Of a stretch of DNA of 64,000 bases, positions 1 through 19,299 are shown one piece after another. Numbering within the stretch: position 1 is the first letter of the stretch; every line of letters starts with the position of its first letter. Where the stretch lies: NCBI GenBank assembly GCA_003971905.1, contig RSEE01000138.1, forward strand, positions 1 to 64,000, read 5' to 3'. A program made the translations under genes and the position numbers. A model generated the notes under the pieces. That model was not told the DNA's origin. It saw only the letters and a list, made by a program, of their open reading frames with translations, and did not search any database. This DNA is from Moniliella sp. 'wahieum'. Taxonomy: Eukaryota.

Positions 1-15
1 TAACCCTAACCCTAA
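1..15. repeat. Telomere-type repeat (TAACCC)2.5 at window start
   Basis: TAACCCTAACCCTAA is the C-strand of the TTAGGG fungal telomere. Only 2.5 units, and it also reads in frame as Asn-Pro-Asn-Pro into the next ORF, so it is ambiguous. Confidence 0.45.
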
Positions 16-19
16 GGAA

Positions 20-3000
20 ATGGAGGAGGTGGACGAGTTGGAGCACGTCTCGGTCCCTCCTGCGCCTGGATCACCACCTCCTCGTCCTTCTCTCCTCCCT
101 CCTCCCGCTCCGGCTCCCGCTCCCCTTCCCCGCGGAGGCCAAGCGACAATGGGGCGCAAGCGCCGCTGCCGCGCTCCGCCTCTGTCGAGCCGCTCGCCGG
201 TCCAACATCAAACATCAACATCAACATCAACATCAACATCGGCATTGGCATTGGAATCAGCTTCGACATTGGAATCAGCTTCGGCATTGGCATTGGCCTT
301 GCCATCCGCATCAGCTTCCGCATCCGTATCGGTATCCCACCAGTATCGAGCCAGGAGGCAGAGCTGGACCGGCTGGTCGAGGAGGCACTGGTTTTTGCTG
401 CGCTGTCGCTGGGCAAGACGTTGGTGGACGAGATGCATGGGGTGGGCCAGGCAGCGCCACTGGAAGCGGTCGCTTGGGTTGCTATGCACCACCTCTTGCT
501 CCACTTGATCCGCGCTGGGTTCCTCCCGCCCGCTTCGGCCTTGGCCACACCACCACCACCACGGGCACAGGCACGGGCTCGAGTACAAGCTCGTCGGAGC
601 GCCACTGGTCAAGGGAACTACAAGCTGCGTACCCTGTGCTACGACTTGCGCGGTTCCGACCTCCGCTTGTGCGTCGTCGTCTGCACCAGCCACCGCAACT
701 GAGGCGCAGCTCCCCGCCGCCGCTTTGGCCGCTTGGCAAGCTCACCCGTCCACCACGTTCATTGCCCGTGCGGCGGTGCGCGAAGTTCGCTCCTCGTCAC
801 GGCCTACCCTTTGCCCCCGCTTGCGGACGTGGACGTGGACGTGGACGAGGCTGAGGCCGGGCTGGGTCGGACAGGTTCATCGGTAACACCAATGTGGAGA
901 GGGACGCCAATGTGGACATGGACGTGGACGTGGACGTGGACCTGGATGTGGATGTGGACATGGACATGAGGGAGGACCTACCTGGGGCTAGGATGGACAC
1001 GCCCGTGGTCAGCGCGATAGATGCCACTGCCACTGCCACTGGGGCTCGTCAAGCAAGCCTGCTACCCTCATCCTCCGTCCCATGCTCAATCCCAGTCCAT
1101 GCTCAATCCCAGTCCCATCCTCAATCCCAGTCCCACCCTCACTCCCAGCCCAATCTCGGTCCCAATATTTTCTTCCACTTCCACTTCTCCGCACCCACCA
1201 CCAGAAGAAGCAGCAGCAGCGGCAGCAGCCCTGCGCGCACGCTCCAGCGCACACTCAAGCCCGACCTCGCCGCCGCCCCTCGCCTCGCGTCCCCGCTTGA
1301 CCGTGGGTCCCGGGCTGCTTCGGTGCAGTCTCATGCGTCGTCGGTGGCCCAGTCCCATGCGTCGTCGTCAGCTTCGGCGTCCGTGCGCGCGCGCTCGACC
1401 ACCAAGCGCCACCCGACGGTTCCCTCTTCCTCTTCTTCTTCTTCTTCTTCCTCGTCCTCTTCTTCCTCGTCGTCCTCTTCGTCCTCGTACTCGCCTTCCC
1501 GCTCGCCCTCTACCCAGGACCACGACGGACCCAAGTCGGCCTCAACCTCGGATTCAGATTCAGACGCCAACTCGCATATGGCCCCGGATGCGGAATCGGA
1601 CTCGAACTCGGACTCGGACCCGCCCTTGGACCACCACTCCCATCCCAACTCCCACGAAGCCTCGAATCGAACTCGGACTCGCATGCAGCTTCGGATTCGG
1701 ACCACAACTTGGACCACAACTTGGATCCGCACTCAGCTTCCGATTCAGACTCGAACTCGAACTCGGACTCGGATTCGGACTCGAGCTGCCAAATCATCGT
1801 GCGCACCAAACCCCATCCGCCCCATCCACATCCCGACTCGGACACGTCCAGTTCCAGTTCCAGATCACGTTCGCGGTCGCGGTCGCGGTCGCGGTCGCGT
1901 TCTGGCTCCGCTTCCAGTAGCAGTTCGAGACGGAGTGGCAAGTCGAGGTCCAGGTCGAGTTCGAGACGTTCCCCCTCCCGGTCGGCCCACTCGCACTCCC
2001 ACGCCCACAACGCACACCGCCACACATCTTCCTCTCCTCCTCCTCCTTCCTCATTCTTCCTCATCTTCCTCTTCCTCTTCGTCGGGAGGTGGTACGACAC
2101 GCACAGGCGCTATGCCCTACGTCCGTCCAGGACTGCAACGACAGCGCAACGAAATCGCTCGTTTGCAGCACCCCGGGCTGAACCTCGCACGCGCCCTGCG
2201 CCCAGTCCTCCGCGCGACCCACCTCGCGACCAGCGCCGCGACAGCCACCCTCACCGGGAAGCCGACGCAGCTCGCGACCACAACCACGACCGTGCGACCA
2301 GAAGCAGAAGCAGAAGCAGCAGTAGTAGTAGCGTCCAGCAGGTATCGTCCCCCCGCCTCGCCCACCCCGAGTCCTGCCTTGTCATCGTCGTCATCCTCAT
2401 CCTCATCGTCGTCGTCGTCGTCGGTGCCGCAGCGGCCGAGCACGGAGGAGGAGCGGTACGAGGCGTTGGTGTCCGATGCGCTGGACCGCGTCGAGGAGAT
2501 CATCGAGGTACGTACCTTCCGCTAGAGATTGATATGGGCATGGAGTGACGGACTGACTGATGTTGTGCTTTGCTTTGGGGATTCGCTACGTGGCGGTGGT
2601 GCAGACGGAGACGAAAACGCTGACGGCGTCGTTAGCGCCGCTTCTGCCGCGCGACATGACGCTGGAGGTGTGGCCCGAGGCAGAGGTGGAGGCGCACATG
2701 CCCTCTGGGCCGGACGCGCCCTCACACGAGCGAGTGGCCAAGAGCATGCGCAGGCGTCTACGCGTCCACTACATCTGGCGCGCCGTCTGGGACGCACTCG
2801 CTGTCCTCGACGTCCTCCCGCCGCGCACGACGCTCGAGCGTATGCGCAGGGCGCTCGACCCGCCCATCTGCTGCTCGTGCGCCGTCCCCGCCGTCGCCAA
2901 CGCCAACGGAGACGGACACGCCACAGACGATACCGCGGCGCACGTGGCCCGCAGACGTGATGGCGGCGTACCCGCCCTGGAGCTGGGCAACATGCAGCCC

Positions 3001-5489
3001 GACGCGACGGCCATGCTGGCCTACCTTCGGCGGCGCCCGACCACCCGCTCGCCCTACTGCGGCTGCATCGTCGCCCTGACCCCGTCCCGAACGGCTACCT
3101 CACCGCCTGGCACCACAGCCCCGCCACTGTCGTCGCCACCATGCGCATCGCGTTGGACATTGAGAAGCTGATGCATGCGCTCCCTCGGCGTCCTTCTTCT
3201 GTGCCCGTGGCTGTGCCCACTGACGTCCCCACGGCCTCTCTCGCGCGCATGCACATGTGGAGGCAACTCGTCCGAGTGCACTTTGTACGTTTTTCTTTTT
3301 TTGTCTCTCTCTCTGGCTTGGCCACGCTGACATGTGACCCTGTCCTTCCCACCACCACCACCCCACTACACAGGACACGCTCTCCCGCCTGCTCGCCGAA
3401 GCGGCAGTGACGTACGACGTGGACGTGGTCGAGGCAAGACGGCAGCTGGCGTTGCGCATGCAAGGTCGTCTCCTCCCCCAGCCGGGCGAGATGGCGCGCG
3501 AGGCGGCTGCTTCCGCCTCTGCCTCCACCTCTACTTCCACTTCCACCGCTACTTCCACTTCCACTTCTAGCGCTGCGGGCGGCTTGGCCTCGGGCGCGTC
3601 CCGACCCCGTCGACGCGGCACCACTGGACCGCGCAGCTCGTTGAGTTTTACCCGCTCTTGCGCGACCCGGCGCTCCACCCGACCGGCTGGCTCACCCGCG
3701 CCTACCTCAACAGGCCCGACAACAACCCAAGGGCAAAGGCAAAGGCAAAGGCAAGGGTAAGGGAAAGGGCAAAGGCAAAGGCAAGGGAAAGGGGAAGGGG
3801 AAGGGAAAAGGGACCCGGCAACCTCAACGTCTTTCGCCGGACCAGGCACGCGCACTGGCTCGTCAACTCGCTCCCTTGGTCCAGATCCTCTCGGACGACG
3901 TGCGCATTTTCCGCCGCATCGCTGCCTCCCTCCCCCGCCCACCACCACCACCACCACCACCACGCTACCCTCAACGGCAACGGCAACGGCAACGGCAATG
4001 CTTCCACCACTACGACTACCACCGCTGATGCTGATGCTGGCACTGAAGCCCGCCCTGACGGCCCTCGCAAACGGCCGCGCTCTGACCCCCCCCGCCTCAC
4101 CCTCGGCTTTCGCACTCCCAGCCGCATTCCCAATCTCATTCCCAGTCACATTCCCAGTCACATTCCCAGTCGCACTCGCAATCGCACTCGCAATCGCATC
4201 TGCTCAACCTGGCCGAACCTCGCAAACGTCCCCGCATCGAGGGTGGCACTGACCACGCGCCTGTCCTCCCCCTCCACCGGCCTTTGTGCCCCCTACGGCG
4301 CCTGCTGCGCCTGCCCGCTCCGACACGGCAGCGGCGTTGGAAGTCCAGGTGCGCCGTGCGTTGGTACGTCTCTCCCCTATTCTTTTCTGGTTTCTGGTTT
4401 CTTGGTGCTTGGTGCTTGGTGCTTGGTTGGGGTTCTGTTGGTTGGGTTGGCTGACGCGCTAGATCGATTGGTCGTGCTGGGTGCAGAGGAAAACGTGTCA
4501 GGCGCTGTTACCTTTGCTGCAGACGAGCTTGGCCAACGCGAGTACGAGTACGAGCGGGAACACGCGCACGAACGCGAACGGGACCACGCGCACGAACGCA
4601 AGTGGGAACACAAGTGGGACCACGAGCGGGAACGCGCGCGCTAGGCTTCCACCAGCCTCGGCGCGCGCACTGCAAAATGCGTTGATCCAAGTCATGTGCG
4701 ACGCGTTGGTCCAGGCTCAACTCTTGCCCTCCCCAGCGAGGTGGAAGCTGTCCTGCGTCGCTCTTGGCTTGCAACACCTCCTTTGCCCGCCCCACCCGTA
4801 CCCACACCCTTAACCACCAATTACAACATCGCAGCAGCCGCTACCACCATCCCTGGTACCCTTACGACCACGGCAACGACCACGGGTAATGGTAGTGGTA
4901 GTGGGAGTGGGAGTGGGAGTGGCACCACCGAGTTTCCTTGGCCCATGCCATTGGTATGGGAGTTCCCGCTGCTACGCTTAACCCTCTTCCTGCCCACGCG
5001 GCGGTACATGGCCGTGTACGCGCACACGGGCCGTATGGCCATGGCCGCGACGACTCTCTCCACCACGAATGGCTCCACCACGACAACAGGGTCCACCACG
5101 ACGGCAGGTGCGGGAGTGGGTACGGGGTTGGGAGGCCGTCGAGCGGTACCAGCTGGGCTGGTGAAGCGGTGGGCGCAGTCGTCTGCGACGCAAGAGCACC
5201 TACATGAGTTGGTGGTGATGTTGCAGGAAGAACTGCGGTCGCCGCGCCGGCTCGTCGGGCTCGCCCCGCTCGCTGCTTTCCCCCCCGCCCGGGCGTGGGT
5301 CAATGAGGCCAGCACGCTTTTGGTACGTTTTTTTTTCTTCTGTTGGTTTGGGTGTTGGGTCGCGGATACAGACAATGACAAAGACAAAGGGCAAAGAGTA
5401 AAGCTAACACTTCTTCTTCTTTTCTTCTTTCTTCTTTTCTTCTCTTATTCTTTTCTTCTTCTTCTTCTTCTTCTTCTTTTCTTCTTATT

Positions 5490-5520
<31 letters not shown>

Positions 5521-6140
5521 TTCTTCTTCTTCTTCTTCCCCCCTCAGGCGGAGCTAGAACGAGCAGTGGAGACGGCGCTGACCGCGGCGCTCAACGCTGT
5601 GCCGGAGAGCCAACGACCTTCGCGCCCTGGGAACCCGAATCTGCTACTCCAATTCCACACAACACTCTTGGCGCGTGCGCAGCTGCTTCCGCCCGCCGAC
5701 GTACTCCGCGCCGATATGGGCGAAGTGAATGCTCAGTCGGTCTCGGGACCGTGGGAAGTACGTACTTGGTCCGATCATGTCGTCGGTAGTTTCCCCCTTC
5801 TGCGCGCGTCTCAGTTGCAGCCCCAGAGTCGCTGGGTGCGCGTGTATGTCCGTGCGGCGATGCGCAGGTTACGCCTCCCCCGCCTTTGCTCGTGCAGCAC
5901 ATGTTCAGGGAACAGAGCCGCTACCAGGCCGCCTTGCTTGCCGTCCAGGAACATGTGTTGATGTGGTCTAGGTTGGCGTTGGCATCGGCGTCGGCGTCAA
6001 GATGTGAGTCAAGGGTAAGCGGGGGGAGCGAAGTGGGGAGGGGGATTGGCTTGCTTGCTTGCTTGCCCTCCTCGTCGCCCATCGACTCCCCCTCGTCCCA
6101 ACGATCAAGTACTTGTCCCTCCCCATCCTTGTGCCAGTGA
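20..6140 (+). CDS. Large multi-exon hypothetical protein with ~5 tandem copies of an unrecognised domain and Ser/Asp/Arg-rich linkers (frameshifted; may be 5'-truncated)
   Basis: GTACGT donors at 2508, 3285, 4364 and 5323, with CTGAC/CTAAC branch points. Recurring peptide motifs EL.RLV..A, LLP(P) and FPLLR...P...Y occur across + frames. Confidence 0.6.
5410..5538 (+). repeat. (TTC)n-type intronic microsatellite
   Basis: Imperfect TTC run between branch point GCTAAC (5403) and acceptor AG (5546-5547). Confidence 0.9.
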
Positions 6141-16000: not shown

Positions 16001-16951
16001 TTTCTGAAAGCAGAGCACGTACGGGATGTGAATGTGATTACCTTGACAAATTCCCGCCCCTTCGGTTTCCTCACGACCGCTGGGTAGACGCACCGAATGA
16101 CGTAGTTGGCTGTGCACATACTGGATGTATCAACACAAATGCCCTTGAGGAAACGGCTTACGGGAACACCAAATCACCATTTCATCTCTTCGTCAATAAA
16201 GCGACGTTGGAGGGTGATGCGTCAAACCAGATTGCTTACGATCGTCAGAGTGGTCGCACGATTACGTGTGACATGTGGCACGAAGGAGCACTTTACAGCT
16301 GGTGAAGAGACAACGTCGGCCTGTATAGTACCGTGCGCTTGCCAGATTTCATGTAGCAGAACGCGTGGATTTAATGGCTGATAGAACTAGAACTATCCTT
16401 CATCTCCCATCTGTCGCCAACGATTACCGCAACCTTTCAGAAGGAGTCCATCCCCCTAGATATCTATCAAGATTACATTATCTACTTTCAGTGTTCCTTG
16501 CGCGTTGAGCCACCCGCTCCCCGTTTTTGGCTAACGTCCCATCGGTTTCCTTCTCAAGCCGAAGAGTTTCCGCTGTTTGGTTCTTGCAGTTGTCTTTGCC
16601 CTACAGCTCTTAGCCCCTCGTGGCAACGAACAGTTTGTCGTTCCTCTCTTTGCATAGGTGTTGGTTTAGATCATCTCCTCCACGAGTGCGATTGTATCAC
16701 CCTCGAGCACCATCCGGCCAGTAGGTCACAGTGTTACAGTAAAATGTATCTATCCACAAAACAATAGGGGTTCACACGACACAATCTTAAACGTCATTGA
16801 TGGCTGATGTCATTGATGCGATACGATAGAGCCAAACACTTGTAGGTGCGTTGTGACAATTCATTTTGGACTATGACACTTCAAACCTGTTGAGGCACTG
16901 CAATGATATAAAGTAACAAGAATTGTATTTGGGAAGAGTTGTACCACTTTC

Positions 16952-17104
16952 TGTCGGAGGAGATCTGCCCAGCGGTCTGCTACCGGTGAGGAGGGAGATG
17001 GTGGACTAAGGAAATGAATTACTGGGGGCAGAAGTCTCGGGAAGATCTACTCCGGAATAAACCGGAGGCGGAATGGGGGGCCGCAGGTGGCGTCTCACTC
17101 AACA
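16952..17104 (+). mobile_element. Solo-LTR-like element (153 bp) with 5-bp target-site duplication
   Basis: TGTCGGAG...CTCAACA (TG...CA) termini and an internal AATAAA. CTTTC flanks both sides (16947-16951 and 17105-17109). A second copy lies nearby. Confidence 0.8.
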
Positions 17105-17770
17105 CTTTCGACAGTTATGTTTGCTCTTGAACCGATAATAGCCCGGACTTATCCAAATCATTGCTTGAAGACGATGGAACACCCGAATATCTTTCGCCCC
17201 CACATCATCCGTAATATTCCGTCTATACGGTGTGAAATGGCCACGTGTATATGTGTAGAGACCCGAACTGTGCCACGAAACCATGTTTAGATTGACACTA
17301 TTGTTGTGCAGCTCTCTGTGGTGTTTCCTTGTAAATGGCATGATTCATAAATTTTCTCATTGACCAACCTCTTGCAATCCCGTTTTGACATATAGGCAGT
17401 AATCCCCTTGACGATTTAGATGCTGAATACACTGCCGAAGGTATTGTTCGTACATGCTACAGGTGAACCTGACTTGGCGGTCGTTTAGAACAAGTACAAC
17501 AATGGACCATTTGTCACATCAGCCAGACTCAATCTCAGCAAACCAAGGTGGGTTGGCCTATTGAGATACCTTTATTTTGCGTGTTGACTGCCTTTAAGAT
17601 TGTTGCCCGCGATTCCGTTTGAGGTCCATGAACTACTCTCCTGGAGGATATTTATTACTAGTAAAAGCATGCATCAAAGAAATATATTCCCGGGACGCGG
17701 AGACCTGGATTTCTCATTGGGCTCCAGAGATGTGGTGGCCACATTTGCTTCGCAACACCAGAACAACGTA

Positions 17771-17924
17771 TGTTGAGTGAGACGCCACCTGCGGCCCATC
17801 CCATTCCGCCCCGGTTTATTCCGGAGTAGATCTTCCCGAGACTTCTACCCCCAGTAATTCATTTCCTTAGTCCACCATCTCCCTCCTCACCGGTAGCAGA
17901 CCGCTGGGCAGATCTCCTCCGACA
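17771..17924 (-). mobile_element. Second solo-LTR-like copy (154 bp), inverted
   Basis: Reverse complement matches 16952-17104 with only a handful of differences. Flanks ACGTA/ATATG do not form an intact TSD. Confidence 0.8.
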
Positions 17925-19247
17925 ATATGTTCTCACAAATGGGTTCAATTGCTGGTTCACTGACCTGTTACAACCTTGGTGTGCCCTTGCTGTGCTAGTT
18001 GTGCACCCATTAGCTGATTATTATATGTCCTGCGGTCACACAATTGGCGCGTAATTGTGTGGCCCGATTGTTGAGTACAGCGAGTCAGGATACGCAACAA
18101 GGCAGCGAATCAGGTGAGAAGTTCTTGCTTGAAACCACAGATTGTGTTTCCCTTCAGGAAGCGCGCGGGCGAGCTACACACTTTTCGCTCGCGAATGGAA
18201 ACTCGGGATCCGGGGGAGACCAAATCGTATTTGGACTTGACGACTCATCTTCGTCTTGGTCGAGAAGCTTTAGGTACGGAGCAAATGCTAATGGTCCATT
18301 TGGGGGGGAAAAGGAGCAAATTGTGTTGAGATTGAAAGCATCAGATGCATATATAACGTGGACATCCGTCCCAAAAATGAAAACACTCCTTGCGTGAGTC
18401 GGACCAATTTTGCCTTCCTTAACTTGACGCCGATAACAGATTTGACTTCACTCGCGTCCTTGACACGAGGGATAGCAAGGGAGAGCCGAGATAGCGCTGA
18501 CATCCTGGATGTCAGAATAAATAAGGTTTCTGACATCAGCGACATCAAGGCCACGATGGATATTGATGACATGTACACTATCAAAAAGGGGTCGGTAGTG
18601 ACTACCTTGACGATATTGGCATAGTATGGGGCATCGCCAACAAGAGGGAGACGCCTTACAGGAGAAAATGTATATTCAAGTGTGGAGAGAATGACGATGC
18701 ACAGTTGATCGTGGTGGCCATCGACTTTCGATTCAGTGTCGAGTTATATAAACTGGGTAGCAGCCTGGAATCAGAGGGAAAGCGGACGACATAGCTCTTA
18801 TGTGCCTTTTGCGAGAAAGTAAATGTGTGCTATACAGCAGCTCGTCGTGCTCCAAAGAGATGTAAACCGTTTCAGCGTTTTTCGGTCTCGCTACTACCAC
18901 TGTATGGAGGCGCATGAGCTCGTGTGAAAGAGAAAACGTCCAACTAGAAACTTATTACCTTCTACGTCCATCTACATCTAATTTCTACCTTCTTGGTGAG
19001 CGTGCGATGGGGGACAAGGAGGGCCATATAAAATATGTGAAAATTGGACTATAGGCACATCATCGACCCCTGTTGGTCTCCCAGAAACTCAGTTGAGTAT
19101 ATGCGCATGGTCAAGAGTCAGAGAGTTGGTATACTATCCAGGAAAATAAAGGAAACTGAAGAAATTCGGGACAAGCGAACACGTGCGCCAACCTGATGAG
19201 TCCGATAAGGGTGCCCGAATACTCCGGTGTCATTCTGGGCAAAGAGA

Positions 19248-19299
19248 TCAAGTCGCAGGTTCAATCTGAGAGGTCAAGTCGCCGGTTCAATCTGAGGGG
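19248..19299 (+). repeat. 26-bp tandem duplication
   Basis: TCAAGTCGCAGGTTCAATCTGAGAGG followed by TCAAGTCGCCGGTTCAATCTGAGGGG. Confidence 0.85.

Follow-up and report, generated by a model that had tools for sequence, protein, structure and literature searches.

The first 64,000 nucleotides of contig RSEE01000138.1 (contig C138) of Moniliella sp. 'wahieum', hereafter the window, come from an assembly of 69.5 Mb in 223 contigs. The window opens with a gene on the forward strand that encodes diverged copies of one helical module, five in this copy and six in an intact sister gene on contig C130. Its exons total ~1,810 codons, and the intact protein comes to ~2,000 residues. We conclude that the module was very probably copied from the helical domain at the N terminus of Bud22/SRFBP1 and amplified long ago into genes with one, three or six modules, judging from sequence comparisons.

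Read along the forward strand, the coding sequence starts with the remnant of the linker between modules 0 and 1 (20..354), where the first remaining ATG of the C138 allele lies at position 20. Module 1 (355..790), read in frames 1, 3 and 2, is followed by a long low-complexity linker (791..2450) with Asp/Ser-rich tracts and an Arg-Ser (RS) dipeptide tract holding 24 RS/SR dipeptides in 133 amino acids (1661-2059). In the paralog on contig C122 a single open frame of 721 amino acids crosses the linker between modules 1 and 2. The ratio of non-synonymous to synonymous substitution (dN/dS) in the window linker was low in one frame at p<0.05 in two of five stretches tested, with p=0.07 for the RS stretch. 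Module 2 (2451..3200) is the most diverged; its first helix lies ahead of intron 1 (2508..2604) and its core spans 2710-3200. Intron 2 (3285..3373) immediately precedes the first helix of module 3 (3374..3944), which contains Ser/Thr and Lys-Gly low-complexity insertions. Intron 3 (4364..4462) lies ahead of the degenerate start of module 4 (4463..5283), which carries tandem-repeat insertions, and intron 4 (5323..5547), with a long CTT tract, directly precedes the first helix of module 5 (5548..5971), which ends in a probable stop codon (TAG, 5969-5971). All four introns are in phase 0, have a GTACGT donor and a CAG/TAG acceptor, and occupy the same four sites in the C122 and C130 genes; modules 0 and 1 begin without an intron. 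Besides RS dipeptides the linkers carry acidic stretches and stretches of Lys/Arg; five psi-K-x-E motifs, which we read as putative SUMO sites, lie in the C122 linker. Leu, Pro, Trp and Tyr occupy the best-conserved module columns, and none of the polar residues is invariant.

An initial annotation, made from the window sequence alone, had described about five copies of a three-motif module with introns at or near the starts of copies 2-5. All 18 of its motif strings occur where it placed them, and its count holds for the window copy, although not for the sister gene. The three motifs do recur, but the C-terminal helix of each module had been missed. Motif B, called weak in copy 1, is strong there when read in frame 3 at ~600-698, and the string given as motif N of copy 4 (LDRLVVLGAEE) begins inside intron 3, the exon starting at 4463. 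Introns 2 and 4 lie precisely ahead of a first helix, intron 3 ahead of a degenerate module start, and intron 1 past the first helix of copy 2. The proposed internal repeat is significant: with a leave-one-out hidden Markov model (HMM) built from this gene's modules, 0/300 shuffles reached the scores of modules 1, 3, 4, 5 and the sister's module 0, while 46/300 reached that of module 2, which is not significant alone. A second profile, drawn from 10 modules outside this gene and not fully independent as its members were themselves found with related queries, detected the same four window modules at 22-50 bits (module 1, 22.1; module 3, 21.8; module 4, 33.1; module 5, 50.5; 0/500 shuffles each) and gave 4.5 bits for module 2 (3/500 shuffles) and 5.6 bits for module 0 (2/500).

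Each of window modules 1-5 pairs with the same-numbered C122 module in a tree of 24 rows (support 96-100), and window module 2 groups with module 2 of that paralog (support 96/93). Same-position identity between the window and C122 modules is 26-57%, reaching 57% for module 1, whereas modules within the window gene are 15-30% identical. The amplification therefore predates the C138/C122 duplication, and the array has not been homogenised. The initial annotation had suggested an old exon-module amplification; the age stands, and copying by exon is consistent with copies 3 and 5 as well as with the single-module paralogs, not with all copies.

Own-genome searches and profile scans located at least 12 module loci in six sister pairs, with 37 modules as a lower bound. 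The presence of genes as sister pairs suggests a hybrid or polyploid genome. The C138/C130 genes have 5 and 6 modules, and the C122/C132 genes 6 each. On C4/C16 a plus-strand gene has 3 modules in each sister and a minus-strand gene has 2 detected modules in each, while C75/C35 carry two single-module genes on each contig. The two C4/C16 genes face each other ~7 kb apart in both sisters (C4:294700-305400 and C16:233400-243900). No neighbouring genes are common to the window and the compared flanks of C122, C132, C65, C4 and C75. Weak candidates from own-genome searches on C19, C91, C22, C120, C7, C178, C14, C30, C18, C49 and C151 were rejected, none falling below E 0.3 with the module profile. 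In one C75/C35 member (C75, piece L067:4080-5520; C35, piece L069:3897-5340) the single module is closely followed by a Retrotrans_gag domain (PF03732; E 3.4e-7) and two CCHC zinc knuckles (PF00098; E 1.6e-8). This Gag/knuckle part shows weak purifying selection (dN/dS 0.45, p 0.04), and the whole is possibly a domesticated fusion. Both families, as in domesticated Gag and zinc-knuckle proteins, stand behind a module in this paralog only; a Pfam scan of the window pieces found no Gag or knuckle sequence in the window gene.

A module profile of 13 pieces, searched against 1.84 billion protein representatives, gave seven matches at E<=0.001, none of them below 1e-10. One (P0001) was dropped as a perfect tandem-repeat artefact. 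Five (P0002, P0003, P0004, P0006 and P0007; E 4e-6 to 1e-4) are unnamed proteins from public assemblies that carry the same module as here, one per record, where gene calls may be single exons; they have no annotation and none represents a described family. P0003 combines one module with ~750 low-complexity residues. The public module proteins P0002, P0007 and P0009 have a common longest-contig figure of 15646, a hint that another fungus has module genes or exons grouped together. JGI metagenomes yielded no relative from two single-sequence queries, and the ESM Atlas no usable match for P0007.

The remaining match, P0005, is a BUD22 protein (Pfam E 3.8e-20) whose residues 70-188 were matched at E 4.7e-5. 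When P0005 was used to search the genome, the canonical BUD22 on C65/C17, intact there, came first among 13 matches, followed by six module loci at E 0.001-0.14. The profile from 10 other-gene modules scored P0005 at 45.4 bits and the genome's own Bud22 at 16.3 bits, and a profile restricted to the window modules, C130 module 0 and the C122 modules scored them at 27.5 and 7.7 bits (0/500 shuffles each). Alignment of modules and Bud22 with hhalign gave 88.9% and E 2.4e-6 over 72 columns, and residues 25-200 of P0005 led in the ESM Atlas to BUD22 and SRFBP1 clusters at 0.89 and 0.84, which serves as a lead only. AlphaFold2 predicted Bud22 helices at 20-64, 66-84, 87-101, 108-114, 127-132, 134-137, 146-153 and 167-198, and module helices at 2-16, 26-43, 50-54, 76-81, 83-86, 95-105 and 112-140. 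The module modelled was module 5 of C122, 50% identical to window module 5 (predicted local distance difference test score 76, predicted template modelling score 0.63); in the model it follows the Bud22 helix series beginning at helix 3, while its helix 1 is short and the helix 1-2 hairpin is missing. Ahead of helix 1, BUD22 has a phase-0 intron, as do the C75/C35 and C4/C16 genes and modules 3 and 5 of the window gene; the BUD22 intron is within two codons of the site in C75/C35, C4/C16 and window module 5. Homology to the Bud22 domain from helix 3 onward is clear for modules 3, 4 and 5 and indirect for modules 0-2. The initial annotation had judged the fold unassignable to any known family, which no longer holds, although curated repeat families gave no direct match: Pfam matched 0/13 modules at E<0.01 and 0/14 window pieces below E 0.01.

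The module very probably retained helix 1 in part and helix 3 with all that follows it, whereas the basic hairpin of helices 1-2 and the C-terminal Bud22 motifs were lost. The hairpin falls in an alignment gap and is absent from the module model, and tblastn over 10 module loci found nothing below E 0.19 for it. The C-terminal pieces of the genome's own BUD22 match only the C17 sister, with E 0.33 as the best value elsewhere, and had no match in the 10 module-gene loci searched. We infer the direction from Bud22 to module because Bud22 is widespread (a Pfam family, with the Atlas lead) and matches to the module are few. The genome's own Bud22 (C65, piece L073:1740-1790; C17, piece L084) lacks a loop and a Trp-Pro motif, both retained in P0005 and in almost every module, and so the modules look older than that loss. 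Bud22/SRFBP1 (PF09073) and the modules have in common the profile match, Leu-Leu-Pro and Tyr-Pro-Leu motifs, the predicted helix order from helix 3 and the phase-0 intron. However, Bud22 has one domain, the basic hairpin and conserved C-terminal motifs, and is present here as one sister pair, whereas the modules lack hairpin and C-terminal motifs, stand in arrays of 1, 2-3 or 6 at no fewer than 12 loci and lie below the reach of the Pfam model. By these defining features the gene is not a member of the Bud22 family, yet on sequence evidence it appears to be built from the Bud22 domain.

The window and C130 run collinear, at 77-94% identity, over the part of C130 compared. Positions 1..15 of the forward strand are a (TAACCC)n telomere repeat fused into the coding sequence, in line with the possible chromosome end noted earlier; similar repeats occur at many contig ends, with a TAACCC pattern in the first 30 bases of 26 contigs (among 77 matches). 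These 26 contigs, several of them small, start with only 15-35 bases of TAACCC, and C35 has repeats at both ends, which suggests many small chromosomes, frequent breakage and healing, or trimmed telomeres. The sister C130 runs 3548 bases beyond the junction, through module 0, the start codon and a transfer RNA (tRNA) gene to its own short telomere-like end. Relative to C130, the window copy has lost ~3.5 kb comprising the promoter, start codon, module 0 and the intron-bearing tRNA gene, a truncation not visible from the window sequence alone; module-0 DNA was found on C130 only (own-genome search, one of one candidate). Most simply read, the junction marks a terminal break that was then capped with telomere repeats, which would leave a promoterless allele; possibly it is an assembly join rather than a real break. 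We consider it likely that the C138 allele was recently truncated at its 5' end and telomere-capped and that the C130 sister is the working gene. The window copy would then be a clear-cut example of a gene severed when a chromosome broke and its end was capped with telomere repeats, in one of the two sister genomes. The intron-bearing tRNA gene, missed by ARAGORN, lies at piece L017:8076-8157 of C130 (Rfam 35 bits), ~200 bases upstream of the intact gene. Within the linker between modules 1 and 2, ~215 bases (window 2215-2460) lie on the opposite strand in C130 (L017:4970-5240), which takes the first helix of module 2 off the reading strand there. This is either a local inversion or an assembly error and, if real, could bear on whether the C130 gene is intact.

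Several observations weigh against a Bud22 origin. The Pfam BUD22 model matches no module or window piece, and a genome-wide search with it passed the curated cut-off on C65 and C17 alone. Just two Bud22 sequences carry the link, and one of them, the genome's own, is without the Trp-Pro motif and, with the window/C122 profile, scores barely above its best shuffle (7.4 bits). A Bud22-only profile detected modules 3, 4 and 5 (0/300 shuffles) but missed module 1 (13/300), module 2 (244/300) and module 0 (18/300). Word-index homolog searches either returned the query itself alone, adding no further Bud22 sequence, or came back empty from the best 8000 candidates among longer proteins, which is weak evidence. 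By our own reading the BUD22 intron lies two codons upstream of the module intron site, and the two structural models were compared by helix order alone, the Bud22 model having been folded with modules in its alignment. The resemblance might then be chance or convergence and the module a lineage-specific new fold, in keeping with module-Bud22 identities of just 12-34% and with the Pfam and structure searches. Sequence searches of the PDB gave 0 matches for the module profile and one at E 1.9 for P0005, PDB sequence and fold searches found no solved structure of the Bud22 N-terminal domain, and Foldseek gave no match at E<=0.001 for either model. The best fold-search Z was 6.5 for the module, among generic helical bundles, and 7.4 for Bud22, on a two-helix piece, values taken as common helical packing; a missing fold-search match does not demonstrate a new fold. 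Given the reciprocal matches with two Bud22 proteins, the database-wide E value, the same helix series and the common intron site, we regard a new fold as very unlikely. The frameshifts raise a further alternative, that all copies are decayed pseudogenes: between the window and C130, 28 indels that break the frame fall within 2333 aligned bases of module exon (12.0 per kb), and the window copy is truncated. However, four housekeeping controls show 5.8, 12.9, 14.4 and 19.1 such indels per kb (four of eight genes, the others having no sister sequence in the compared part). Since the indels are equally dense in housekeeping genes, mostly single-base and at different places in the two copies, we read them as assembly errors. 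The 646 codons compared in the window/C130 pair differ at 47 of 1438 non-synonymous sites and at 70 of 500 synonymous ones, giving a dN/dS of 0.22 (p 9e-16; 1.30 and 2.03 in the shifted frames), and in module 5 the counts are 0/285 and 23/95. Comparable ratios were obtained for C122/C132 (0.32, p 6e-6) and C75/C35 (0.27, p 0.007). For module 2 alone (0.63, p 0.07) and for the C4/C16 pairs (0.74 and 1.19) the ratios gave no significant sign of selection. The substitution pattern indicates that the window/C130 modules are under purifying selection, and general decay of the family is highly improbable.

What the intact protein does is a more tentative matter. Our preferred proposal, held with less than even confidence, is that it serves, in the nucleus or nucleolus, as a scaffold without enzymatic activity that works in RNA processing or surveillance rather than taking the place of Bud22. 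The six diverged helical modules would each bind a protein partner, each having specialised, and the RS, acidic and basic linkers would hold the protein on RNA-protein condensates; a binding fold fits because the best-conserved columns are hydrophobic or proline. SRFBP1 is reported to bind SRF through its N-terminal region (PMC4160719). The modules might instead still act in 40S biogenesis, as multivalent Bud22-like adaptors or decoys for Efg1, Dbp4 or the U14 pre-90S particle that tune ribosome assembly. Their homology to Bud22 is consistent with this, as Bud22 is required for 18S maturation, pairs with Efg1 as a dimer and crosslinks to the snoRNA U14 and to the 5' domain of 18S rRNA, the mechanism being left open (PMC10783500); basic and RS linkers would also suit a nucleolar protein. 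However, the basic hairpin and both C-terminal Bud22 motifs are unmatched in the module-gene loci searched, and EFG1, like BUD22, is a single sister pair, with no expansion alongside the modules, which makes a role in 40S assembly unlikely. Another role would be in retrotransposon control, with modules as decoys or adaptors; one member would have gained access to the RNA or particles of retroelements by acquiring a Gag fragment and two zinc knuckles. The C75/C35 fusion and its purifying selection point that way, as does the lower Ty1 Gag in yeast bud22 mutants (PMC3522557). Yet the Gag part occurs at only two of the 12 loci and is absent from the window gene, the fusion is read across frameshifts and known from genomic sequence alone, and the Ty1 effect in yeast may be indirect, bud22 having failed the screen of the same paper; we hold this role, too, to be improbable. 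A broader version, in which the freed Bud22 domain was amplified into six-module, three-module and Gag/two-knuckle forms that police RNA, including retroelement RNA, as multivalent adaptors or decoys, has a small chance of being right. Taken together, a Bud22-derived origin, a truncated window allele and a nuclear scaffold form the explanation that we favour overall, with moderate confidence.

The established picture of Bud22/SRFBP1 is an assembly factor with one domain and one gene copy; the module family departs from that, a housekeeping domain of a normally single-copy ribosome-assembly protein apparently having been turned into a repeat family. The domain core seemingly holds up when the basic hairpin is missing, tolerates sixfold repetition and can be linked to RNA-binding parts derived from Gag. 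Titles and abstracts in the literature searched, a collection lacking most subscription journals, mention no Bud22-derived repeats. The 37 natural variants may mark the residues that hold the fold, and offer a route to identifying the part of Bud22 responsible for binding Efg1 or RNA, which PMC10783500 leaves open.

Collinearity between the window and C130 is broken at window 16200-19270, where C130 has ~6 kb and the window ~2.3 kb, and a second difference of ~9 kb lies near window 41000. The neighbours of the gene in the window are presumably fungal septin, SNF2 helicase and permease genes, labels that we assign from their translations. A dispersed repeat of ~700 bases at C130:154516-155216 (L017:9017-9717), present in many copies of 71-76% identity (40 of 560 candidates scored), is probably a long terminal repeat-like element.

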